Shown here one piece after another: positions 21,153-51,524 of a stretch of DNA of 64,000 bases; the stretch's first letter is position 1, and the number at the start of each line of letters is the position of its first letter. This DNA comes from an uncultured bacterium. GTDB taxonomy: Bacteria > Patescibacteriota > Minisyncoccia > Phycocordibacterales > Phycocordibacteraceae. Both the position numbers and the translations under genes were made by a program. The notes beneath the pieces were generated by a model. It was not told the DNA's origin. It made no database searches and saw only the letters and a list, made by a program, of their open reading frames with translations. The stretch lies in the NCBI GenBank assembly GCA_903825105.1, contig CAIJZI010000006.1, positions 1,399-65,398 of the forward strand, written 5' to 3'.

Positions 21153-22421
21153 ATGAGTGCGATATCTTTTGCGATAGAAAAGCGCGCGCCACTTCGTGGC
21201 GCGCGTGTCGGCATTCTCACCACGCCGCACGGCGTAATTCACACACCTGCTTTTGCGCCAGTAGGAACAAAAGCGAGTGTGAAAGGTATTTTGCCTAGTG
21301 AAGTCGCGAAGCTCGGTGCTGAAGTGGTGCTCGCGAATACCTATCACCTCTATCTTCAGCCGGGCGAGCAGATTGTGAAAGAGGCTGGTGGCCTCGCGAA
21401 GTTTATGGGCTGGTCGGACTCGTCTTCGCCTTTGGGCTCCGGCGCGGCGAAGCCAACCATCACCGATTCAGGCGGTTTCCAAGTGTTTTCGCTCGGTGCT
21501 GCTTTCGGCAAAAAAATCTCCAAATTTGATGGAATGAGGGATTTCGTAAATCCATCATCTGATAAACCAGTAATTTTTGACGAAGAGGTCGCGAGTCAAC
21601 ACGGCCAACTCGCGATTATTGACGACGAAGGCGTCTCGTTTACCTCGCACATCGACGGCTCGCTTCATCGCTTTACGCCAGAGCGATCGGTGGAGATTCA
21701 GCACGCGCTTGGGGCAGACATTTTCTTCGCTTTTGACGAATGCACTGCGCCAACAGAGACCTATGAATATCAGAAAGATGCTATGGAACGCACACATCGC
21801 TGGGCGGAACGGAGTTTGAAGGCACATCGACAAATGGAATATGCCCGCCTTCGTGAGAACTCCGGCGTGGCGAAGCAAGCAATTTTCGGCATCGCACAAG
21901 GCGGGCAGTTTGATGACTTGCGAAAGTTGAGTGCGAAGACAATCGCAGAAATGGGCTTCGATGGATTCGGACTCGGCGGATCGTTTAGTAAAAAGTATGG
22001 CGATGATTCTCTCGAATCAGCGCTTCAAATGCTTAAAGAATTGCCAGACACTATGCCAGTGCACGGCCTTGGTATTGGAGAGCCGGGCGATATCCTCGCC
22101 AGTATTGCCGCAGGTGTTGACCTTTTTGACTGTGTAGCGCCGACACGCCTCGGTAGACATGGCACAATTTATACTAAAAATGGTTTAGTTCATTTGAAAA
22201 ATGAAAAATATAGAAATGATTTTTCGCCACTGGGCGAATCAGGGTTTACCCATGCGTATGTATCGCATCTGATTAGAAGTGGGGAAATGCTCGGTGCGAC
22301 GATCGCCTCGATGCATAATCTGAAATTTATTTTGGATCTTGTCGCTCACGCGCGGCAGGCGATTTTAAACGATACTTTTGAGGAATATCGTGCAGATTTT
22401 GTAAATAAATATTATGGCTAA
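21153..22421 (+). CDS. tgt: Queuine tRNA-ribosyltransferase (with ~36-aa insertion carrying a palindromic repeat)
   Basis: 'TPHGVIHTPAFAPVGTKASVKG', 'LANTYHLYLQPG', 'TDSGGFQVFSLG', 'FAFDECT', 'LFDCVAPTRLGRHG'. 422 aa versus ~375 typical. Confidence 0.85.
   Translation: MSAISFAIEKRAPLRGARVGILTTPHGVIHTPAFAPVGTKASVKGILPSEVAKLGAEVVLANTYHLYLQPGEQIVKEAGGLAKFMGWSDSSSPLGSGAAKPTITDSGGFQVFSLGAAFGKKISKFDGMRDFVNPSSDKPVIFDEEVASQHGQLAIIDDEGVSFTSHIDGSLHRFTPERSVEIQHALGADIFFAFDECTAPTETYEYQKDAMERTHRWAERSLKAHRQMEYARLRENSGVAKQAIFGIAQGGQFDDLRKLSAKTIAEMGFDGFGLGGSFSKKYGDDSLESALQMLKELPDTMPVHGLGIGEPGDILASIAAGVDLFDCVAPTRLGRHGTIYTKNGLVHLKNEKYRNDFSPLGESGFTHAYVSHLIRSGEMLGATIASMHNLKFILDLVAHARQAILNDTFEEYRADFVNKYYG
21526..21562. 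repeat. Degenerate copy of the 'FVNPSS' palindromic element inside tgt (in frame)
   Basis: TGATGG-AATGAGG-GATTTCGTAAATC-CATCATC. Shares the 18-mer TTTCGTAAATCCATCATC with the uvrB copy. Confidence 0.5.
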
Positions 22422-24498
22422 TTTCAAATTACACTTACCGTTTCAGCCGGCGGGCGATCAGCCCGAAGCGATTAAAAAGCTGAATGAAGGCCTCAAAAAA
22501 GGCTTGCATCATCAAACACTTTTCGGCGTGACGGGGAGCGGGAAGACCTTCACGATGGCGAATGTTATCGCACAGAATGATAAGCCGACACTCGTCCTCG
22601 CGCACAACAAGACACTTGCTGCCCAGCTCGCGCAGGAGTATCGCGAATTTTTCCCCGAGAATGCGGTGCATTATTTCGTTTCCTATTATGATTATTATCA
22701 ACCAGAGGCGTACATCGCGCACTCTGACACCTATATTGAAAAAGAGGCGATGATTAATGCTGAGATTGATCGGCTTCGCCACGCTGCGACGCAGGCTCTG
22801 CTCACGAGGAAAGATGTGATTATTGTTGCGTCAGTCTCGGCGATTTATGGGCTCGGTTCGCCAGAAGAATATGAAAAAGTGCATGTGAAAATTGAAAAAG
22901 GTGCACCAGAAAATAGAGCTGCGTTAATCAGAAAACTGGTTGCCATTTATTTTGAGAGAACCAACGCCGATTTGAATCCAGGGCAGCTGCGTGCGATTGG
23001 TAACTCGCTTGAGTTTATGCCGGTGAATGAACGCGTCTTGTATCGCGTTGTCTTCGATGGTGATGCCATCTCGCGCGTCGAACAGCTCGACCCAGTCTCG
23101 CGTGCAAAAGTCGCGGAGCCACAGTCAATCTTCGTCTTCCCGGCGAAGCACTTCGTCACGAGTGAAGAAGAGCGAATCAGAGCGATTGAAGATATTAAAC
23201 TCGAGCTAGAAGAACAACTCGCGAAGTTTAAAAGAGAAGAAAAACCGCTCGAAGCAGAGCGACTGAAGCGCCGCACCTTAAGCGACCTCGCGCTGATTCG
23301 CGAGATCGGTTACACGAACGGCATCGAGAATTATTCTCGCCACTTTGACGGGAGAAAGGCGGGCGAGCCGCCATACACATTGCTCTCCTATTTCCCCAAA
23401 GATTTTTTAACTGTTATCGACGAGTCGCATGTGACCGTACCGCAGATTGGCGGGATGTATGCAGGAGATAGATCAAGAAAAAATGTGCTGATTGAATTCG
23501 GATTCCGTTTGCCGTCGGCGCTCGATAATCGTCCGCTTATGTTTGAAGAATTTGAAAAATGCGTGGGGCAAGTTATTTATACGAGCGCGACGCCGGGCGC
23601 ATATGAAAAAGCGCATTCTGAACAAGTCGTTGAACAAATTATTCGTCCGACTGGTCTTATCGACCCAGAGCTTATCGTGCGCCCTGTCTCTGAAGGCACA
23701 GAACCCATGATGGGTTTCGTAAATCCATCATCAAATGATGGATTTACGAAACCAAAATATCGAGGGCAGATTGCTGATTTTATCGACGAAGCAGAAAAGG
23801 TGATTAAAACGGGTGGGCGCGTTTTGGCTACAACACTCACCAAACAAATGGCAGAAGACCTCTCCTCATTCCTGCGCGATCGCGGCATCAAAGCTGAATA
23901 TTTGCATTCTGATATTAAAACGATTGACCGCATCGACATTCTTACCAATTTCCGCAAAGGTGATTTCGATTTACTCGTCGGCGTGAACCTGCTGCGCGAA
24001 GGGCTCGACCTGCCTGAAGTAGAGCTCATCGGCATTCTCGACGCTGACAAAGAAGGATTCCTCCGTAGCGAAGTTTCTCTTATCCAAACCATCGGTCGCG
24101 CCGCTAGAAATGTTTTAGGCCGCGTGATTCTCTATGCCGATGTGATGACGGGCTCCTTGGAGCGCGCCATCGGCGAGACGAATCGTCGTCGCGATATTCA
24201 GATCGCCTACAACACAAAGCACGGCATCACGCCGAAGACGATTCATAAAGAAATCCACGACATCGCTGCCTCAATGCGCACCGAGCATCAAAAGACGATT
24301 GATGAGTTGCTCGTCTTGGATACGATTGCGTATAAAGAAGATCCAAAAGAGTTTATAAAGAGAAAGAGGGAAGAGATGGCTGAAGCAGTCGAGAAATTGG
24401 ACTTCGAAACCGCCGCGCTTATTCGTGATGAAATTTATAAGCTTGAAGGCACCGGTCCCAAATCTAAAAAATCGCGCGGGCGAAGACTTTTGTCGTGA
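22414..24498 (+). CDS. uvrB: Excinuclease ABC subunit B
   Basis: 'GVTGSGKTFTMANVI' Walker A, 'HYFVSYYDYYQPEAY' beta-hairpin, 'EYLHSDIKTIDRIDIL…' helicase C region, C-terminal UVR-interaction helix. Overlaps the tgt stop by 8 nt. Confidence 0.9.
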   Translation: MANFKLHLPFQPAGDQPEAIKKLNEGLKKGLHHQTLFGVTGSGKTFTMANVIAQNDKPTLVLAHNKTLAAQLAQEYREFFPENAVHYFVSYYDYYQPEAYIAHSDTYIEKEAMINAEIDRLRHAATQALLTRKDVIIVASVSAIYGLGSPEEYEKVHVKIEKGAPENRAALIRKLVAIYFERTNADLNPGQLRAIGNSLEFMPVNERVLYRVVFDGDAISRVEQLDPVSRAKVAEPQSIFVFPAKHFVTSEEERIRAIEDIKLELEEQLAKFKREEKPLEAERLKRRTLSDLALIREIGYTNGIENYSRHFDGRKAGEPPYTLLSYFPKDFLTVIDESHVTVPQIGGMYAGDRSRKNVLIEFGFRLPSALDNRPLMFEEFEKCVGQVIYTSATPGAYEKAHSEQVVEQIIRPTGLIDPELIVRPVSEGTEPMMGFVNPSSNDGFTKPKYRGQIADFIDEAEKVIKTGGRVLATTLTKQMAEDLSSFLRDRGIKAEYLHSDIKTIDRIDILTNFRKGDFDLLVGVNLLREGLDLPEVELIGILDADKEGFLRSEVSLIQTIGRAARNVLGRVILYADVMTGSLERAIGETNRRRDIQIAYNTKHGITPKTIHKEIHDIAASMRTEHQKTIDELLVLDTIAYKEDPKEFIKRKREEMAEAVEKLDFETAALIRDEIYKLEGTGPKSKKSRGRRLLS
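23713..23753. repeat. 41-nt near-perfect palindrome inside uvrB, in frame (encodes 'GFVNPSSNDGFTKP')
   Basis: GGTTTCGTAAATCCATC-ATCAAAT-GATGGATTTACGAAACC: a 17-bp stem that falls in a region absent from E. coli UvrB. Confidence 0.65.
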
Positions 24499-24581
24499 GC
24501 TTGACAGTAGAATTTGGTTGTGTATACTAATATACGGAAGGTAAGAGGCATCCAAATCTCTCAATGAAGGAGGAAATTCCT

Positions 24582-24725
24582 ATGTTGGTGGAATGGGTAA
24601 ATCAGTTTTCGCTACCTGTTCAGATTTTGTTGACCGTCGGCATTACTGCTGTGTTTTGCGCCCTTGTGCTGGTTGTAATAAGCGCTGTGTGTTTCGTTCT
24701 GTCCAAAGGCGGACGCAATCCGTAA
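24582..24725 (+). CDS. Small single-TM membrane protein (47 aa, not in ORF track)
   Basis: AGGAGG is 6 nt upstream of the ATG. A TTGACA…TATACT promoter lies at ~24501-24530. Translation is 'MLVEWVNQFSLPVQILLTVGITAVFCALVLVVISAVCFVLSKGGRNP'. Confidence 0.35.
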   Translation: MLVEWVNQFSLPVQILLTVGITAVFCALVLVVISAVCFVLSKGGRNP

Positions 24726-24876
24726 TTTACAAGAGCTCGCTAGCAATAGCGGGCTCTTTTACTTTTGTTAGCAAGGTCTCGCCTTGATACAAGAAGCTCA
24801 TTTCATAAGGTGCCTTAATTTTATGGCTTATTTGCTTGATATTTTATACCTCACAAACGAGCATTTTGAAAAACGC

Positions 24877-24905
24877 TTGACAAATAAAATTGAGTATGCT
24901 AAACT
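24877..24905 (+). promoter_or_regulatory. Sigma70-like promoter (TTGACA-17-TAAACT) preceding an ORF-free transcript
   Basis: Consensus -35 hexamer with 17-nt spacing to a 4/6 -10 hexamer. Confidence 0.35.
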
Positions 24906-24907
24906 TT

Positions 24908-25166
24908 ATACAGATTCGTAATTGAGAGCAAAACTGCAGATGGCAGGTCTGACTCTCCGAATCTACTAGAAGTGAAATCTTCTAGGGGCGGTCCGTTATC
25001 TCACACGGACAACTCTTGAAAGACCTAGCACATAAATACATAAGCTAGACTTTCTTTGATCCTTAGGAGGATGCCAAAATGGCTTGAGGGAGATATGTGA
25101 GATTCCCTGACAAACTCCTCTCCGTTTTACCGCCCCGCACAAAATGTGCGGGGTTTTGCTTTTGTG
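24908..25166 (+). ncRNA. Candidate structured small RNA (~250 nt) of unknown class
   Basis: No ORF longer than 10 codons. Multiple local hairpins (CTAGAAG-TGAAAT-CTTCTAG; AGGGA…TCCCT). Ends in intrinsic terminator CCCCGCAC-AAAAT-GTGCGGGG-TTTTGCTTTTGTG, just upstream of uvrA. Confidence 0.3.
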
Positions 25167-25220
25167 CTATACTCATACCGTACCTGCCCCGCCACGGGCA
25201 GGAGTTTCCATATTTAAACA

Positions 25221-27962
25221 ATGCCTAAAAAAACAGCAAAAGAATCCCTCGACGATGCTCGGGACAAGGAACACAATTTCAAGCACGGGAGCGACCCCGA
25301 CGCGCGACAAGCGGTCGGGGCTGACTGGCTTACCGTGAAGGGCGCGCGTACCCATAATTTAAAAAATATTAATGTCGAGATGCCACGCGGCGCGATGACG
25401 GTGATCACGGGCGTTTCGGGGAGTGGTAAATCATCGCTCGCTTTTGACACTATTTTTGCCGAAGGGCAACGACGCTATGTTGAATCGCTTTCTGCCTACG
25501 CGCGACAATTTTTAAATCAAATGGCGAAGCCCGATGTCGATGAGATCACCGGACTCTCGCCCGCGATTTCTATTGACCAAAAATCGCGTTCGAATAATCC
25601 GCGTTCGACGGTTGCGACGGTTACAGAAATTTATGATTACTTGCGTGTGCTCTACGCACGCGCCGGTCAGCCGTATTGCGTGAATCATGATGTGCCAATC
25701 GTACGACTTTCAAAAGAAGAAATGATTAAGATGGTTTTCTCGCGGATTGAATCGAAAAGGCACTTAGGAAAGACTTCAAATACGGATTCTGGAAGTCTGA
25801 CTTCTGAAGCGCCTGTGGTTATGGGCGTTGTGGTTGATAAAAGTGCGGTGACGATTTATGCGCCAGTCGTGGTAGGGCGCAAAGGGGAATATTATCAAAT
25901 GCTTTATGACCTGCTCGGGAAAGGTTTTGAAAGAGTGATGATCGACGGGAAGGTGCAGTCGCTACGCGAAAAAGTAATTCTTGATAGAAATAAAAGGCAC
26001 GATATCGACGCGATTGTCGACACGATTTATGTTTCAGAATTTATTCGCTCGACTGATGGCGCGCGCGAACGACTCTCTGAAGCGCTTGAGCTCGCGCTGA
26101 AAGAAACGGACGGCTTGGTGAAAATTGGCCACGCTGATGGCACACTCGAAACCTTATCGTCAAAATTTATTTGTCCTGAAGACGGCGCGTCATTCCCTGA
26201 GGTTGAACCTCGCCTCTTTTCATTTAACTCACCCTACGGCGCATGCCCAGAGTGTCACGGACTCGGCACCGAATCATTCTTCTCTGATGCTCCGTGTCCG
26301 GTCTGCGAAGGGAAGAGACTTCGTCCGGAAGCACTTCGTGTGTATTTAAAAAGTAAAAAAGATAAAACGCTCGGGAAAAATATCGTGGATTTTACAAACA
26401 TGTCGATTCGCGAAGCAAAAGAATTTGTCGACTCGATTGAACTTTCAGAAATGAAAAAGGATATCGCATTGCCGATTTTAAAAGAAATAAATAATCGCCT
26501 CACCTTTATGCTCGATGTCGGGCTCGATTATTTAACACTCAATCGAAGTGCTGCGACTCTCTCTGGCGGCGAGAGTCAACGCATCCGCCTCGCTTCGCAG
26601 CTCGGCAGTGGGCTCACGGGCGCTTTGTATGTGCTCGACGAGCCAACGATTGGTCTCCACCAACGCGACAATGACCGACTGATTAAAACATTGCTCACGC
26701 TGAAAGAGCTTGGCAATACGATTGTTATCGTCGAGCACGATGAGGACACGATTTATTCTGCAGATTATATTGTCGACATTGGTCCGGGCGCGGGTGTCCA
26801 CGGCGGCCGCGTAGTTGAGTCAGGATGGTTGGATGACCTTTTAACTGCCAAGAGCAATGAAACAGGCTCGTTGACTCTTGCTTATTTACGCGGTGAGCGG
26901 GAGATAGTAATGCCTGAGTCGCGACGCGAAGGCGAGCGCGGGTGGATCAAGGTGCGCGGAGCGACTTTGCACAATTTGGTAAATCAAAATATCGATGTCC
27001 CGCTTGGTAAATTGGTCTGCATCACGGGCGTTTCGGGGAGCGGGAAGTCGACCTTTCTCTATCATATTTTGCATAAAAACATTGACGCGCGATTCGGTAG
27101 GAAAGAGGCGAAGCTACAAAATGTCGCTTCGCTCACCGGTAGCGAATATCTCGGGCGCGCCGTTTTAATCGATCAATCGCCGATCGGCAGAACGCCGCGC
27201 AGCAACCCTGCGACCTACACTGGCGCATTCACGCACATTCGCGATCTTTTTGCCGCGACTTCTGAAGCGCGTGCGCGAGGCTGGAAGCCGGGCAGATTTT
27301 CTTTTAATGTTTCTGGCGGTCGCTGCGAAGCGTGTCAGGGCAATGGCTCGATCGCAGTTGAAATGCATTTCTTGCCGACGGTATATGTGACCTGTGATGT
27401 CTGCGAAGGAAAACGATTTATGAAAGAAACACTCGAAGTCACCTATCACGGGAAAAATATTTATGAAGTTCTCCAAATGACGGTTGAAGAAGCCGAAAAG
27501 TTTTTTAAAGATATTCCGGCAATTTCCGATCGTCTCGCCTCGCTGAATGCGACTGGCCTTGAATATTTAACACTCGGACAAAGCGCGACAACACTTTCGG
27601 GCGGAGAAGCACAGCGCGTGAAGATCGCGAGCGAGCTCTATCGGCCGATGCCGATGAAGACGATTTATCTCCTCGATGAACCAACGGTCGGTCTGCATTA
27701 TGAAGATGTGAAAAAATTGATTGAAATTTTGCAGGAGCTCGTACGCCGCGGCAACACTGTTGTTGTTATTGAACACAATCTCGATGTGATAAAAAATGCT
27801 GATTATATTATCGACTTCGGGCCCGAAGGCGGCGAAAAGGGCGGCAGAATAGTCGCGAAGGGCACGCCTGAAGAAGTTGCCGATACTAAAGGCTCCTACA
27901 CGGGCGAGTATTTAGCGAGAGTTTTGCATAACCATGGAAAAAAGCGATCTAAAAAAGTCTAA
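25221..27962 (+). CDS. uvrA: Excinuclease ABC subunit A
   Basis: Two ABC modules ('[15 protein letters not shown]', '[15 protein letters not shown]'); signature '[12 protein letters not shown]' / '[12 protein letters not shown]'; zinc-finger Cys pairs ('CPECHG', 'CEACQG'). Confidence 0.9.
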
Positions 27963-29253
27963 CCTACCGGACAGTCCCGGTATTTATATCTTCAAGCAGG
28001 GAAGAAAGATTTTGTATATCGGCAAGGCGACCAGCTTACGCGATCGTACGCGTTCTTATTTTGACGATGATTTAATCATTACGCGAGGCCCTCGCATTGT
28101 CGATATGGTGACGAAGGCCGATAAAATTTCGCATGAGGTGACGCCAACGGTGCTCGAAGCTCTTGTGCGCGAAGCGGCATTGATTAAAAAATATCATCCG
28201 ATAGCAAACACGGACGGCAAAGATGATTCAACATTTCTATATGTTGTTATTACGGAAGAAAAAATTCCGCGGGTGCTCACGCTTCGTGGCAAAGAAATTG
28301 ATTTTAAAAACCGAAAAACAATCGGCAAAAGGTCAGACCTTAATGCAAGTTCCTCAAGGTCTGACCTTAATCCGAGGCCGATTGTTTTTCGTGCGATTTA
28401 CGGCCCATTCCCGAGTGGTGCACAACTTAAAGAAGCTTTGCGAATTATTCGGCGCATCTTTCCATTTTTTGACACGCCGAAGCCTGTTGAAACAAAAAAT
28501 AAACATCAAGCGGCAAACATAGAGTTTAATAAACAGATTAAACAGTATCCGACTAATTTCGACGCTAAAGAATATCGCCGCACGATTCGGAGCGTGATGC
28601 TTTTCTTAAGTGGGCGCGCAAAAGATTTGAGAATAAAACTTGAAAAAGAAATGCACACGGCGAGCGAAGAAGAGCGATTTGAAGATGCTGCAGAACTGCG
28701 TCGACAACTTTTTGCATTGAATCATATACAAGATGTCTCGCTGATTAAGGATGAGAATCTTGAACGCAGCCCTTCGACAAGCTCAGGGCGATTCGCTTCG
28801 CGAATCGAAGCCTATGACACCGCGCATTTGTCTGGCACGAATGCGATTGGGGTAATGACGGTGGTCATCGACGGCACGCCAGTTAAAAAAGAATATCGCA
28901 CCTTTCGCATCCGTGGCAATGTGGGACTTCCGATGTCCCACATGAAAAACGACGATATTGCCTCATTAAAAGAAATTTTATCGCGTCGCTTTAATCATCC
29001 AGAATGGCAGTTCCCAGAAGTGATTGTCGTTGATGGTGGCAAGACACAGAAAAAAGCAGCAGAAGATTTTTTGAAAGAAAAGGATTTAAAAATTCCTGTC
29101 GTCGCGGTCGTGAAAGATGAAAGGCACCGCCCGCGCGAAGTCTTGGGCGCGCGTGTAGGGAAAATCTCTGAAGCAGACGCTGTTCTAGCGAATAGCGAAG
29201 CGCATCGATTCTCCCTTGTTCGTCACCGCCAAGCCCGCTCGCGTTTGGTATAA
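27934..29253 (+). CDS. uvrC: Excinuclease ABC subunit C, short form lacking the C-terminal HhH region
   Basis: GIY-YIG 'PGIYIFKQGRKILYIGKATSLRDR'; UVR helix 'EERFEDAAELRRQLFALNHI'; RNase H-like endonuclease region 'IEAYDTAHLSGTNAIGVMTVV'. 439 aa. Overlaps uvrA by 29 nt. Confidence 0.7.
   Translation: MEKSDLKKSNLPDSPGIYIFKQGRKILYIGKATSLRDRTRSYFDDDLIITRGPRIVDMVTKADKISHEVTPTVLEALVREAALIKKYHPIANTDGKDDSTFLYVVITEEKIPRVLTLRGKEIDFKNRKTIGKRSDLNASSSRSDLNPRPIVFRAIYGPFPSGAQLKEALRIIRRIFPFFDTPKPVETKNKHQAANIEFNKQIKQYPTNFDAKEYRRTIRSVMLFLSGRAKDLRIKLEKEMHTASEEERFEDAAELRRQLFALNHIQDVSLIKDENLERSPSTSSGRFASRIEAYDTAHLSGTNAIGVMTVVIDGTPVKKEYRTFRIRGNVGLPMSHMKNDDIASLKEILSRRFNHPEWQFPEVIVVDGGKTQKKAAEDFLKEKDLKIPVVAVVKDERHRPREVLGARVGKISEADAVLANSEAHRFSLVRHRQARSRLV
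28329..28370. repeat. Double-hairpin element (GTCwGAC core) in frame inside uvrC
   Basis: AAGGTCAGACCTTAA-TGCAAGTTCCTC-AAGGTCTGACCTTAA, which encodes 'RSDLNASSSRSDLN'. Confidence 0.55.
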
Positions 29254-29260
29254 TAAATAT

Positions 29261-30247
29261 ATGCAAACCGTCGTTGGGATACTGCGAGGCGGGCCTTCGC
29301 GTGAACACGAGGTCTCGCTTAAAACGGGCGCGGCGATAATCGCGAACCTGCCTGAAGACCGATTCGTCGCGCGCGATATTTATATTGATAAAAACGGCGT
29401 TTGGCACGATCGAGGAATCCCGACAACTCCAGATAAAATTCTGCGACAAGTCGATGTGATTTTAAACGGTCTTCATGGCGACTACGGTGAAGACGGCGAG
29501 GTGCAAAAACTGCTCGAACAATTCAGTATTCCTTTTGCCGGTTCAGATTCATTTGGCTCGTATCTCGCGATGCATAAACTAATGTCGAAGAAGCGTGCGC
29601 AGGAGGCGGGACTGCTCACGCCAAAATTTCATTACATCGAAAATATTTCAGACAGCGAAAAAGCGGCAATAGAAATCACGCGAGCCTTTCATCAGCCCGT
29701 TATTGTAAAGCCGGTGAGTTGGGGCTCTTCGATCGGCGTCTCAATAGTTGGCGGCTATGTGCCGGTGCTTCAATCAATTGAAAAACTTTTTGGAGATGGG
29801 GCTAAAAGCGTTTTAGTAGAAGAATATATTCGCGGCAAGGAGGCGACGGCTGGAGTGGTCGAAGGACTGCGCGGAGAGAAGTTGTATGCACTCCCAACAG
29901 TTGAAATTGTTGCTCCAGAAAATGATTTCTTTTCATATAATTCAAAATATTCGGGGAAATCGCGCGAAGTCTGCCCGGGTAAATTCTCGCGCGTGATGTC
30001 TGAAGAGCTGCAGCGCGCCGCGCGCGTGATGCACCGGGCTCTTGGCCTGCGCCATTATTCGCGTAGCGATTTTATTGTCGCACCGCGGAAGGGCGAGCTT
30101 GGTGCAGAGAGTGTGTATTATCTCGAAACAAATACGCTTCCCGGACTCACTTCAGAATCGTTATTGCCAAAATCTCTCGCCGCCGTCGGCGTCTCCTTCT
30201 CTGATTTCTTATCACATCTGGTCAATTTAGCACTAGGGAAAAATTGA
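29261..30247 (+). CDS. ddl: D-alanine--D-alanine ligase (ATP-grasp)
   Basis: 'VVGILRGGPSREHEVSLKTG', 'DVILNGLHGDYGEDGEVQKLLE', 'FHQPVIVKPVSWGSSIGVS', 'ETNTLPGLT'. Start set at 'MQTVVG'. Confidence 0.75.
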   Translation: MQTVVGILRGGPSREHEVSLKTGAAIIANLPEDRFVARDIYIDKNGVWHDRGIPTTPDKILRQVDVILNGLHGDYGEDGEVQKLLEQFSIPFAGSDSFGSYLAMHKLMSKKRAQEAGLLTPKFHYIENISDSEKAAIEITRAFHQPVIVKPVSWGSSIGVSIVGGYVPVLQSIEKLFGDGAKSVLVEEYIRGKEATAGVVEGLRGEKLYALPTVEIVAPENDFFSYNSKYSGKSREVCPGKFSRVMSEELQRAARVMHRALGLRHYSRSDFIVAPRKGELGAESVYYLETNTLPGLTSESLLPKSLAAVGVSFSDFLSHLVNLALGKN

Positions 30248-30364: not shown

Positions 30365-30592
30365 CAAAACAAAAGAGCCGTACGCGAGAGCGTTCGGCGA
30401 TTATTGTTTTGTAGGGCTGTACGGGATTCGAAGAGACGGAGCGGGGAACCCGTCGAGCACGACGGGTCGCGAGTCGCGGACACGACCAAAACCGAGTGCC
30501 GACGAGGTTTTGAGTTGCGGACGAAAAGCGTAATCGCGGTCCTGCACAACAGTGGTATTATGTCAGTTATGAACACACCAAACAAAGTTTTG

Positions 30593-31168
30593 ATGACACA
30601 AGCGCGGGAGTAGCTCGAAGGGAAGTGGAGTTCTGCTATCGGATTTTATTTTGTGTATCTCGTGATCACAATCTCGATTAGTCTGTTATTGGGGCTCTTT
30701 AAGATCAAAGGGCTGGCTCCAATCGTGTCGCTTATTCTCACGGGTCCATTCATGCTCGGTGTATCTCTTTTCACCCTGTCATTTTCTCGTGGGCAGCATA
30801 CAGACTACGGTTTTTTGTTTAAAGGATTCAACTACTTCGGTAGGACAGTTGGTGCATATCTTTGGGTGATGCTCTTTACAGTGCTTTGGTCGCTCCTTCT
30901 CATTGTCCCTGGGATTATTGCTGGTATCTCCTATTCTCAAACATTCTTCATAATGGCAGACGATACTTCAACCGACTTTAGAGAAGCGGTGAAGAAGAGT
31001 AAAAGAATGATGCAGGGAAATAATAAGTGGAGATATTTTTATCTTCATATGCGATTCTTGGGCTGGGCTTTGCTCTCACTCCTGACGCTCGGGATTGGCT
31101 TTTTGTGGTTTATCCCGTATGTACGAATAAGCGAAGCGAAATTTTACGAAGATATAAAACACGGATAA
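30593..31168 (+). pseudogene. DUF975-family integral membrane protein interrupted by in-frame TAG at ~30611-30613 (alternatively an N-truncated CDS from GTG 30653)
   Basis: 'MTQARE*LEGKWSSAIGFYFVYLVITISI…' reads through as a typical DUF975 N-terminus. The downstream track ORF 30653-31168 is in the same frame. TAG is a genuine stop elsewhere in the window (e.g. the 8853-8855 stop of the dsbA-like gene). Confidence 0.5.
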
Positions 31169-31214
31169 TTGTTCCCGACAAAATGAAAAATCCGCAAAAA
31201 GCGGATCAGGGAAT

Positions 31215-31260
31215 TTAAAAAACGGACTGTTTGCAATTAATGCATTCAGTCCGTTTTGTT
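31215..31260. terminator. Bidirectional terminator between the DUF975 gene and the receiver gene
   Basis: AACGGACTG-…-CAGTCCGTT hairpin with A/T runs on both sides. Confidence 0.55.
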
Positions 31261-31652
31261 TACGAGCTCAAAGCGGCGGAGAGCTGCCTCTTTAGCGTCA
31301 TCTGTGGCCCGCGCTTACGCCGGGTCACATCCTTGATTGTCTCCAGTAATTCGCCGGCCGAATTACTTTTGTTCAAAAGGGCATTGGCGGCGTCACTCGA
31401 TGCCTCGAACAGAATTATAGGAACGCGCGAGTCCAGCCGTTTTAAATTTTCAGTGAGTTGTACGCTGGTGTCCGGATTCATAAATCTTATAATCACGAGA
31501 TCAATAACCGGATTTTTCAGAAACTGCTTTTCCGCCTCGAGTGGGTCACTCGCCCGTATCAGGTGGAAACAATTTGTCTTAAGCAGATAGGCAAGGATCG
31601 AAATCCTCTCCTCGTCTCCTGCCAAAAGCACCATCTTTCTCGGTCTCCCCAT
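31260..31652 (-). CDS. Stand-alone response-regulator receiver (CheY-like) domain protein
   Basis: Start at 'MGRPRKMVLLAGDEE', preceded by GGAGGA. 'VIDLVIIRF' phospho-acceptor Asp region. 130 aa with no output domain. Confidence 0.55.
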   Translation of the reverse strand: MGRPRKMVLLAGDEERISILAYLLKTNCFHLIRASDPLEAEKQFLKNPVIDLVIIRFMNPDTSVQLTENLKRLDSRVPIILFEASSDAANALLNKSNSAGELLETIKDVTRRKRGPQMTLKRQLSAALSS

Positions 31653-31725
31653 ACAAATCCTCCACAAATCCTTTTGTATTATAGCATAACGCGAAAAATC
31701 CGCAAAAAGCGGATTTTTCGTTTTG

Positions 31726-31796
31726 TCGGGCCGCCGAGAATTGAACTCGGTCTACACGCACCCGAAGCGTGCGTACTACCGGCATACTCCGGCCCG
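31726..31796 (-). tRNA. tRNA-Pro (anticodon CGG)
   Basis: Minus strand: CGGGCCG…; anticodon stem CACGC/GCGTG with loop TTCGGGT; T-arm CCGAG-TTCAATT-CTCGG; acceptor 3' strand CGGCCCG-A; C1:G72 pair. Confidence 0.6.
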
Positions 31797-49497: not shown

Positions 49498-49689
49498 CTA
49501 TGGCAGGTCGCTCGGCAAAGCAGGATATGGAAGTCCTCTACAAAGAGGCTGATGCTTTGTCGGAGCACGAGCATGACTTGGACGCCGCATTCGATTTGCT
49601 CTTTGAGAAAGTACTGAAGCGGCGGATGGAGTTGTCCACAACGCCTCTTCACAAAGAAATGACAACTGTGTATAATTAAGCATATCACT

Positions 49690-49884
49690 ATGGCCATCAA
49701 ATTTCTTACCAGAGAGGAAGTGGGAACTTATCTGCGAGTTAATCCTCGGACCGTTGATCGCTGGCTGAAGAAAGGTCTCTTGAAAGGCTACAAGCTCGGG
49801 AAGGGTTCGACTTCAATGTGGCGAATACCGGAGAGCGAGATAGAGAAATTCCTCAAGAAACACGCTAACAAGAAAACACAATGA
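49690..49884 (+). CDS. Excisionase/MerR-like HTH DNA-binding protein
   Basis: 'LTREEVGTYLRVNPRTVDRWLKKGLLKGYKLG' matches the HTH_17/Xis pattern. Overlaps the recombinase start by 4 nt. Confidence 0.55.
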   Translation: MAIKFLTREEVGTYLRVNPRTVDRWLKKGLLKGYKLGKGSTSMWRIPESEIEKFLKKHANKKTQ

Positions 49885-51524
49885 ATGATTCCGCATCAAA
49901 ACCAATACGACTCATTTCGATATATGCTCGTGTCTCAACTGCACGGCAAGAGGAAGACGGCACTATTGAAACTCAATTAGCGGCAGTACGTGAATACGCC
50001 AAGAAGAACGAGTACACCGTGGTGAGAGAGTATGTCGACGAAGGATGGAGCGGAGACACACTCAAACGTCCAAATCTGGATGAGTTGCGGCAGGATGCAA
50101 AGGACAAGCTTTGGGACGGGGTTTTGTTTTATGATCCGGACCGGCTTGCGCGTCGATATTCATATCAGGAGCTCGTTATGGATGAGCTCAAAGAAGCTGG
50201 GGTCGAAGTCATGTTTGTTACAGTGCCTGCCCCTAAAAATAGCGAGGATAAAATACTCCACGGGGTGCGAGGGCTTTTTGCCGAATATGAGCGAACGAAA
50301 ATTGCTGAGCGATTTCGTCTGGGTAAGCTGCGTTCAATAAAGGAAGGTCACATCATTGCGAGCCGCCCTCTGTATGGGTACACCCGTGTTGTCAGAAATG
50401 GTAATGAGCAGGGTTACTACGTTATTAACGAAGAAGAAGCGGTCGTCGTGAGAAAAATCTTTGCCTGGATTGCCAACGGGGGACTAACCATTCGGCAAGT
50501 CGTTCGAGAACTGCAAGTACTCGGTATTAAGCCGCAGCGAAGTAAGCGTGGCGTCTGGAGCACAAGTACTCTAACGACCATGCTCCGTAACGAGGGCTAT
50601 ATTGGAAGAGCGCATTGGTATAGCTCTGTTGCTGTAGAACCTAAGAACCCGATTAGTAAAGAAAAGTATAGAAAGATAAAGAAAAGCAGCACAAAAAAGC
50701 GACCCAAAAGCGAGTGGATGTATGTCGCCGTCCCAGCAATCGTTGACGAGGAGTTGTTTAATCGGGCAGGCTCTAGACTCACCGAGCACGCTACGCTCAA
50801 CCCTAGAAGCAAGAAATATGAGTATTTGCTGGGAGGAAAGATTAAATGTCCGTGCGGACAGAAACGAATTGGAGCTGGGCGAAAGCTCGGTCAATATCTC
50901 TACTACGACTGTTGCGATAAGGTCTTGTGTTTTCCGCTCCCGAGAAAGTGTTACGAGCAGGCTATAAATGCACGAATCGCGGATAAGCTGGTCTGGGCAA
51001 AACTATCTGATCTTATGAGTTCGCCCGACCTGCTCACGAAGCAAGCGGGTCGGTGGGCAAAGGCGCGACAAGACAAAGCCAAAGTGTCAGTTGGTGATAG
51101 TGCCGGAATGGAGAAGCAAATCGCTAAATTGAAGGAGGAACAAGAGCGGTACACAAAAGCCTACGGTTCAGGTGTCTTCACTATGGAGCAGCTTAAGGAG
51201 TACACAACCCCTGTACGTGAGAAAATAACCTCCCTCGAAACACAAATCTCAAAGGTTCAGCAGGCGGTGCGACGAGTCGATCTCGAGGCTCCGCCAACTG
51301 AGAAGGAGATAGAAGCTTTTGCAAAAGAGGCTCACGAAGCTTTGCTCGACTTGAATTTCCAAGAGAAACGAGCAATAGTGCTTTATACCGTAGAAGAAAT
51401 CATTGGCACCCAGCAGCAGTTGCAGGTGTCCGGATACATCCCGGTAACAACTACTAATGGCTGGTACAAAACTAAAGATAGGAATCGTCGGACTGCCGAA
51501 TGTTGGGAAGTCGACATTATTTAA
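49881..51524 (+). CDS. Large serine recombinase (integrase)
   Basis: Resolvase catalytic domain 'IYARVSTARQEEDG…'; recombinase domain; zinc ribbon 'CPCGQK…CCDKVLC'; coiled-coil C-terminus. Last 68 nt overlap ychF. Confidence 0.85.
   Translation: MNDSASKPIRLISIYARVSTARQEEDGTIETQLAAVREYAKKNEYTVVREYVDEGWSGDTLKRPNLDELRQDAKDKLWDGVLFYDPDRLARRYSYQELVMDELKEAGVEVMFVTVPAPKNSEDKILHGVRGLFAEYERTKIAERFRLGKLRSIKEGHIIASRPLYGYTRVVRNGNEQGYYVINEEEAVVVRKIFAWIANGGLTIRQVVRELQVLGIKPQRSKRGVWSTSTLTTMLRNEGYIGRAHWYSSVAVEPKNPISKEKYRKIKKSSTKKRPKSEWMYVAVPAIVDEELFNRAGSRLTEHATLNPRSKKYEYLLGGKIKCPCGQKRIGAGRKLGQYLYYDCCDKVLCFPLPRKCYEQAINARIADKLVWAKLSDLMSSPDLLTKQAGRWAKARQDKAKVSVGDSAGMEKQIAKLKEEQERYTKAYGSGVFTMEQLKEYTTPVREKITSLETQISKVQQAVRRVDLEAPPTEKEIEAFAKEAHEALLDLNFQEKRAIVLYTVEEIIGTQQQLQVSGYIPVTTTNGWYKTKDRNRRTAECWEVDII

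Follow-up and report, generated by a model that had tools for sequence, protein, structure and literature searches.

The window analysed here, a stretch of 64,000 nucleotides from a Paceibacterota/Kaiserbacteria-like CPR genome, contains tgt (21153–22421), uvrB (22414–24498), uvrA (25221–27962, with its start ATG at 25221), uvrC (27934–29253) and ddl (29216–30247), each of them recognized by an NCBIfam equivalog. The genome is tightly packed, and the 722 nt that separate uvrB from uvrA form the longest ORF-free interval of the window on a crude ORF map. A preliminary description had placed a candidate small RNA of ∼250 nt within this gap, and the identity that it gave for both flanking genes was confirmed. 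Among contigs of GTDB genomes, taken at one genome per species, the closest UvrA sequences all belonged to Patescibacteria (CPR) MAGs, with 68–87 % identity and with labels that varied between Kaiserbacteria, Paceibacterota, Minisyncoccia and the like. In a collection of 5.8 billion proteins, UvrA retrieved an identical sequence, followed by relatives of at most 87 % identity; as none were found between 87 and 100 %, close orthologous loci were unobtainable via a UvrA search.

The first feature downstream of uvrB is a companion cassette (24501–24758, forward strand) that comprises a predicted promoter (TTGACA-16-TATACT, 24501–24528, scoring 11/12), a peptide gene (24582–24725) and a terminator (24731–24758), and that is conserved together with the RNA gene described below. 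The real start of the peptide gene is the ATG at 24582, which stands behind the Shine–Dalgarno sequence AAGGAGG, and its product is a hydrophobic peptide of 47 aa for which no match was found in either NCBIfam or PADLOC. Entries for this peptide in the protein collection came from the same strain (P0121) and from two others (P0122 and P0123, both with 77 % identity); it is thus found in three lineages, with its N-terminal 18 residues nearly invariant (one N-to-H exchange in contig L086) and with synonymous changes within these 18 codons in L086. As to the contigs that carry these entries, L081–L083 match the window exactly, L084 and L085 (from two JGI metagenomes) cover the whole module of peptide cassette and RNA gene, and L086 ends at the −10 box of the RNA promoter. 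Because uvrB lies upstream and uvrA downstream of the module in L084, this contig represents a true orthologous locus, and it is referred to below as the orthologue. In L086 (1–540), the module of peptide and RNA promoter is joined not to uvrB but to DNA of 65–74 % GC, with a sharp break in GC content; the junction carries a 21-nt direct repeat, and within the GC-rich DNA there is an MCM P-loop-like fragment, albeit a weak one, whilst inspection by eye suggests a motif like that of GT2 glycosyltransferases. This contig of 911 nt may be an assembly chimera or may reflect a different genomic context and, being short and perhaps chimeric, was not used as evidence for mobility of the module.

The second feature is a predicted non-coding RNA of ∼250 nt (24912–25165, forward strand), the start of which is placed 7 nt after the −10 box and the 3′ end within a U-tract. 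Its promoter (24877–24905, forward strand) consists of a −35 box, TTGACA (24877–24882), a 17-nt spacer and an extended −10 box, TGcTAAACT (24897–24905), in which TAAACT occupies 24900–24905 and is preceded by TG; an A/T-rich, UP-like tract, CATTTTGAAAAACG, lies directly upstream. The TTGACA-17-TAAACT pair had been reported as promoter-like beforehand, and our consensus scan found it with a score of 10/12, with the TG of an extended −10 in addition. Fifteen sites in the window score at least 10/12, and this is the only one to pair an exact TTGACA with an extended −10; as 11 of these 15 are intergenic, the sigma-70 consensus is predictive in this genome. The promoter has been kept in three lineages: in L084/L085 the −35 box and the TGC are identical and the −10 box reads TAACCT, and in L086 the sequence is identical up to the end of the contig, at the −10. 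Many −10 or extended −10 boxes of the window end 6–10 nt before start codons (for example at 2207, 3017, 16619 on the minus strand, 46094 on the minus strand, 52900, 57094, 60457 and 7398 on the minus strand), suggesting that leaderless mRNAs are common in this genome. At the predicted transcription start of the RNA (∼24912) a start codon is absent, and the RNA promoter is therefore not driving a leaderless ORF. Elsewhere in the window, an 11/12 promoter (TTCACA-17-TATAAT) is located 205 nt upstream of a 547-codon gene (49881–51524); the region concerned (49648–49881) points to a long leader or a further small transcript.

At its 3′ end the RNA gene carries an intrinsic terminator (25132–25165, forward strand) with the stem GCCCCGCAC/GUGCGGGGU and the U-tract UUUUGCUUUUG, which abuts the −10 box of uvrA. 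The stem (25132–25154) has 10 pairs, seven of them G-C, around a 3-nt loop, and is followed by TTTTGCTTTTG. It had previously been stated that a clean intrinsic terminator ends ∼50 nt before the start of uvrA, and this fits well with the distances to the ATG at 25221, which are 66 nt from the end of the stem and 55 nt from the end of the T-run.

The 259-nt segment folds with a minimum free energy of −92.3 kcal/mol (z = −6.4 vs dinucleotide shuffles), bearing out the several local stem-loops ascribed to it, although it ranks only around the 11th cluster among 250-nt windows of the 64 kb and is as such stable rather than exceptional. A comparably stable fold is predicted for the minus strand (z = −7.5), since the stems are almost all Watson–Crick and the fold barely tells the strands apart. 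Of the four clusters of 250-nt windows that rank highest in stability in the 64 kb, two fall within 30365–30650 and 31170–31460, both of them unassigned intergenic stretches without an Rfam match at E ≤ 0.1; the former follows tRNA-Ala(UGC) and includes an inverted partial copy of the 3′ end of that tRNA (∼30414–30433), and the latter contains two terminator-like hairpins.

An RNAalifold consensus of the window and the L084 orthologue predicts seven hairpins, P1–P7, plus the terminator, with 71 pairs in total and all on the forward strand. P1 (24912–24964) is a long hairpin, interrupted by an internal loop and a bulge and built from an outer stem (AGAUUCG/CGAAUCU), an inner stem (GAGAGCA/UG-CUCUC) and an apical stem (CUGC-AGAUG-GCAG); P2 (24966–24985) is a 7-bp hairpin, CUAGAAG-UGAAAU-CUUCUAG; and in P3 (24986–25015) a base of 3 bp carries the hairpin GGUCC(G)...CGGAC, with a loop, AUCUCACA (24998–25005), that is invariant in the orthologue. 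P4 (25018–25054) combines GAAAG/CUUUC with CUAG(C)/(G)CUAG and has a 14-nt loop, and it is followed by the short hairpins P5 and P6 (25060–25083; UCCU-UAGG-AGGA and GCC-AAAAU-GGC). In P7 (25085–25124) a purine-rich 5′ arm, UGAGGGAG, pairs with a pyrimidine-rich 3′ arm, CUCC-U-CU-C-CG, and the apical region, AUAUGUGAGAUUCCCUGACAAA, is again invariant in the orthologue. Further words conserved in the RNA include ATATGTGAGATTCCCTGACAAACTCCTCT. The P3 loop (24998–25005) is complementary over 8 nt to the P7 apex (25096–25103), and both are invariant despite substitutions that flank them; a kissing contact between the two might be drawn into the model, but we regard it as a lead only, as chance alone would yield such 8-mers.

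With regard to coding potential, the earlier statement that no ORF exceeds 10 codons held for ATG starts (≤ 9 codons) but not for other start codons, as a GTG ORF of 43 codons extends from 25097 to 25228 on the plus strand; minus-strand ORFs of 48 and 52 codons are also present in the segment. The longer ORFs with GTG or TTG starts cross the terminator and the uvrA promoter, and their frame is shifted by 1-nt indels in the orthologue, for which reason we do not consider them to be coding. Indeed, two 1-nt indels, which shift all frames over P7 and the terminator, together with a TGA/CGA difference break every frame in the orthologue. Two smaller candidates were also rejected: a mini-ORF (AGGAGG-N8-AUG-GCU-UGA), the Shine–Dalgarno sequence of which weakens to AAGAGG in the orthologue whilst its stop becomes CGA, and a 9-codon ORF at 24941 that sits in the P1 apical loop without a properly spaced Shine–Dalgarno sequence. 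As judged from the sequence, we thus concluded that the ∼250-nt segment is non-coding, with no ORF conserved.

A scan of the whole window with Rfam 15 at gathering thresholds returned tRNAs only. When the threshold was relaxed to E ≤ 10 on 24500–25300, only sub-threshold, terminator-driven noise was obtained (OmrA-B, anti-hemB and similar), along with GibS on the minus strand at E = 0.7, which was also counted as noise; additionally, ARAGORN found no tmRNA in the window. The RNA had been reported to lack tmRNA, RNase P, SRP and 6S signatures by eye, and in agreement with this none of these was matched even at E ≤ 10; the scan likewise returned no match to a cis-regulatory element of uvrA, which the preliminary description had considered would speak against an sRNA, or to any other family. 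A tRNA-Pro(CGG) on the minus strand (31725–31796), detected by ARAGORN and by the Rfam E-value scan (45.5 bits), is missing from the whole-window scan at gathering thresholds as a result of a filter effect, and lies inside a spurious 175-codon plus-strand ORF.

Homologues of the RNA were sought by nhmmer with the single sequence, by nhmmer with a two-sequence profile and by a covariance model of P1–P4 (R1), in each case with 80 uvrA loci of GTDB species representatives and the window itself as targets. These searches revealed no homologue or paralogue beyond the same strain (L081) and L084/L085, and the 250-nt segment is absent from the uvrA loci of all 80 relatives. A metagenome scan with a 24-mer of the RNA, which spans a site that differs in the orthologue, gave no match, and a scan with the peptide alignment matched 181 stretches, none of which passed tblastn. 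Three conserved 20–22-mers were without a match in viral contigs, and blastn against phage and plasmid collections likewise returned none. A search of the literature found no paper describing sRNAs or regulatory RNAs in CPR/Patescibacteria.

Comparison with L084 allowed the conservation of each part of the locus to be set against that of the adjacent uvrB gene, the C-terminal portion of which shows 97 % identity at the protein level, 84 % at the DNA level and 64 % at four-fold sites. Identity amounted to 89 % for the first promoter and 5′ UTR, 88 % for the peptide ORF, 84 % for the first terminator and 83 % for the spacer between the two cassettes, which additionally differs by a 40-nt indel; it was 89 % for the RNA promoter, 91.3 % for the RNA body (15 transitions and three transversions), 100 % for the RNA terminator, other than a loop shorter by 1 nt, and 89 % for the uvrA promoter and UTR. 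The RNA body is thus far less diverged than the four-fold sites of uvrB (Fisher P = 2e-7). The same is true of the whole module, including its spacer (P = 0.01 for the spacer), over which the RNA body has only a marginal advantage in conservation (P = 0.054). As the spacer is presumably unconstrained, part of the conservation may stem from a recent transfer or a younger age of the module rather than from selection.

With respect to the fold, the covariation check called for earlier could be made with this one diverged orthologue. Two of the 71 consensus pairs have changed on both sides and are still paired (a pair in P1, columns 16/47 of alignment A4, and one in P4, columns 118/137, both compensatory from A:U to G:C), two have changed on one side and are still paired (P2, columns 62/71, A:U to G.U, which pairs on the plus strand only; and P7, columns 176/215, U.G to C:G) and none is broken. 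All three indels, a 12-nt deletion in the P4 loop and 1-nt deletions in the P7 bulge and the terminator loop, fall in loops or bulges, such that all 14 gap columns are unpaired, and substitutions are ∼3-fold depleted in paired columns (6/140 vs 13/103 in unpaired ones, P = 0.027). When the same 19 substitutions were placed at random on the window sequence and scored on the minimum-energy structure of the window, the cost was 16 ± 4.4 kcal/mol, compared with 1.4 kcal/mol for the real ones (P = 0.0002–0.0004); on the minus strand the real substitutions cost 4.0 kcal/mol (P = 0.003), a larger loss than on the plus strand. Two or more double-sided changes occurred by chance in ∼5 % of simulations (P ∼0.05). 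Three helix-end pairs in the window's own fold, in P5, P6 and P7, are lost in the orthologue; the outermost pair of P5 and the loop-closing pair of P6 belong to the window's own fold only, and P5/P6 is the weakest part of the predicted fold model. The orthologue's own fold has a z-score of −3.9. Taken together, the evidence from this comparison that selection acts on the fold is good but thin, there being a single diverged orthologue and only two pairs that covary.

The wider setting of the module must be taken into account here, as the spacer between uvrB and uvrA varies from 49 nt to 1.4 kb in relatives (gaps of L001–L070). These spacers carry unrelated small-ORF cassettes, often for small membrane proteins, and each such cassette has a terminator directly upstream of the uvrA −10 box. 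The ORF-less spacers of L003 and L017 are without a comparable promoter and terminator pair and are not analogous units. From its sequence, the spacer behaves like a hypervariable, insulated insertion hot spot into which small cassettes may be swapped. In such a setting the segment could conceivably be a neutral or decaying remnant of a cassette that has lost its ORF, and that owes its conserved look to recent sharing or transfer of the module between two lineages. The unrelated small ORFs and terminators of the relatives' spacers would suit this explanation, as would the restriction of the module to two or three lineages, the conservation of the module spacer relative to uvrB four-fold sites and, in L086, the position of the module next to unrelated GC-rich DNA. 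The last of these comes from the short and maybe chimeric contig, however, and a remnant would not be expected to show the pattern of change described above, in which random substitutions would cost ∼16 kcal/mol and the real ones cost 1.4 (P ∼0.0003), two pairs are compensatory and every indel lies in a loop. Nor would it be expected to keep the consensus −35 box, the extended −10 and a perfect terminator all at once. We therefore view a decaying remnant as unlikely.

A different picture emerges immediately downstream, where uvrA has signals of its own. When the segment was searched together with its flanks in the 80 uvrA loci, only ∼25159–25219 recurred. This part contains an extended −10 promoter of uvrA (25165–25173, TGCTATACT; consensus in relatives TGnTATAnT), located downstream of the RNA terminator, and a 7-bp hairpin (CCTGCCC-CGCCAC-GGGCAGG) predicted to lie at the very 5′ end of the mRNA, the two together spanning 25165–25202. 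Promoter and hairpin are present in 58 of the 80 CPR relatives, none of which carries the 250-nt segment, and the segment is consequently not a general leader of uvrA. The hairpin occurs once per locus, upstream of uvrA, in L001–L068 (alignment A5). In a 59-sequence alignment, three of its seven pairs show compensatory changes, and there are 13 G.U cells and no broken pair, which indicates an RNA-level element of the uvrA 5′ UTR; its loop hardly varies, its 3′ arm continues into an AGGA Shine–Dalgarno sequence and no Rfam match was found. The hairpin thus looks like an undescribed 5′-UTR element of this clade; it is better supported than the 250-nt RNA and is the truly conserved regulatory element of the locus.

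The proximity of these signals raises the possibility that the segment is itself a cis element of uvrA, either an attenuator or riboswitch-like leader that acts by conditional read-through, or a source of transcriptional interference by termination inside the uvrA core promoter. Consistent with this, the terminator covers the uvrA promoter from −35 to −12, with its U-tract directly next to the −10 box; in addition, the 8-nt GGGGCGGU (24985–24992) could pair with ACCGCCCC (25129–25136) in competition with the terminator, and a 14-nt stretch (25112–25125) is 86 % complementary to the hairpin and Shine–Dalgarno region of uvrA. Against it, the putative antiterminator pairing is weakened in the orthologue by one wobble pair and a G.A mismatch and is at chance level, as perfect 8-mers are expected ∼4 times (an estimate) in the 761-nt region scanned, whilst the complementarity to the 5′ region of uvrA is no better than that of shuffles, and a G-to-A change interrupts the 14-nt stretch in L084. 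Aptamers, moreover, have multi-helix junctions, and the consensus fold is without one; no riboswitch or leader family was matched in Rfam. Finally, whereas a riboswitch or attenuator has no promoter between itself and its gene, the extended −10 of uvrA (25165–25173) intervenes here, and as noted the promoter and hairpin of uvrA occur in relatives that have no such segment. Control of uvrA in cis by the segment is, as such, improbable.

It might also be asked whether the RNA is the antitoxin of a toxin–antitoxin (TA)-like pair formed with the adjacent 47-aa peptide, acting either by base pairing (type I) or by binding of the peptide (type III-like). The peptide, MLVEWVNQFSLPVQILLTVGITAVFCALVLVVISAVCFVLSKGGRNP, resembles type I toxins, by a likeness drawn from general knowledge, in its size and single-helix look, both cassettes are conserved together and each has a strong promoter; furthermore, the locus resembles type I systems such as the SOS-linked tisB/istR-1 in that a gene for a small hydrophobic peptide adjoins an RNA gene, here in a DNA-repair neighbourhood. 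The best duplex between the RNA and the peptide mRNA, however, reached −18.6 kcal/mol, compared with −21.4 ± 2.3 kcal/mol for shuffles under the same tiling, and −21.0 kcal/mol on a finer tiling; the best duplex is thus weaker than the shuffle mean, and antisense pairing with this mRNA does not exceed chance. Unlike type I pairs, the RNA and the peptide mRNA are without above-chance complementarity and the two genes are in tandem on the same strand with a terminator between them, neither overlapping nor divergent, and the peptide has no PADLOC or NCBIfam match. A TA-like pair is accordingly a very doubtful reading. A variant, to which we assign a similarly slight probability, is that peptide gene and RNA form a new two-gene CPR module, able to move between genomes into the uvrB–uvrA spacer, in which the folded RNA would control or neutralize the peptide by means other than antisense pairing, be it type III-like or unprecedented.

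On balance, we lean towards the view that the segment encodes an independently transcribed, lineage-restricted, structured sRNA, carried with the 47-aa membrane-peptide gene as a two-cassette module in a hypervariable, insulated spacer that precedes the autonomous promoter of uvrA. The candidate ∼250-nt small RNA proposed beforehand is supported in that a conserved promoter and terminator bound a segment with no conserved ORF, fold-preserving divergence and no Rfam match. According to this sRNA model, the RNA would be transcribed from its own strong sigma-70-type promoter, with its −35, extended −10 and UP-like tract, and would fold into the chain of seven stem-loops, P1–P7; the intrinsic terminator would end the RNA and insulate its gene from the adjoining uvrA promoter downstream, and RNA gene and peptide gene would travel together as an accessory module in the uvrB–uvrA spacer. 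The RNA would then probably act in trans, not on uvrA in cis, and might work either by virtue of its fold, binding a protein or serving as a scaffold, or by pairing via its loops, with the invariant P3 loop and P7 apical region as the best candidate contact surfaces. When the RNA was matched against the translation starts of 59 genes in the window, no predicted duplex stood out or surpassed shuffled controls, and overall we favour a shape-dependent function in trans over antisense pairing or cis control of uvrA.

Like trans-encoded sRNAs in general, the candidate is preceded by a sigma-70-type promoter of its own, measures ∼250 nt and lacks a conserved ORF; its stem-loops follow one another in a chain up to a Rho-independent terminator, and its phylogenetic distribution is narrow. 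It differs from them in being nearly all base-paired, without a seed-like single-stranded region that has a detectable target, and from the known examples in that its host belongs to the CPR/Patescibacteria. The arrangement of short hairpins as 'beads on a string' followed by a terminator is reminiscent of CsrB/RsmZ-type RNAs, but these have repeated GGA loops, whilst the candidate has four GGA in ∼250 nt, approximately the chance number and none of them loop-centred, and its hairpins have no common loop motif; we therefore rejected a Csr/Rsm-type sponge RNA. The 6S, SRP and RNase P RNAs and tmRNA are housekeeping RNAs often missed in CPR genomes, and the candidate falls in a similar size range, with a strong promoter and high predicted stability; unlike them, it is absent from the same spacer in the 80 relatives. 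A 6S RNA (RF00013) was rejected, with no match at E ≤ 10 and seven local hairpins in place of a closing helix and a rod with a central bubble. Similarly, tmRNA, RNase P RNA and SRP RNA were discarded in view of a chain of local hairpins that is not a multi-domain fold, together with the negative Rfam and ARAGORN results.

CPR/Patescibacteria have tiny genomes with few recognizable regulators. As the evidence stands, the RNA counts among the many orphan bacterial sRNA candidates and its importance is modest, although this would rise with more covarying copies, a transcript or a link to the peptide. A practical lesson from the locus is that its conserved element is the short hairpin in the uvrA 5′ UTR, and that the spacer upstream of it is a site into which cassettes are swapped. 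If real, a well-delimited sRNA gene with such strong signals would provide an entry point for metatranscriptomic validation and for a covariance-model search of the Paceibacteria.
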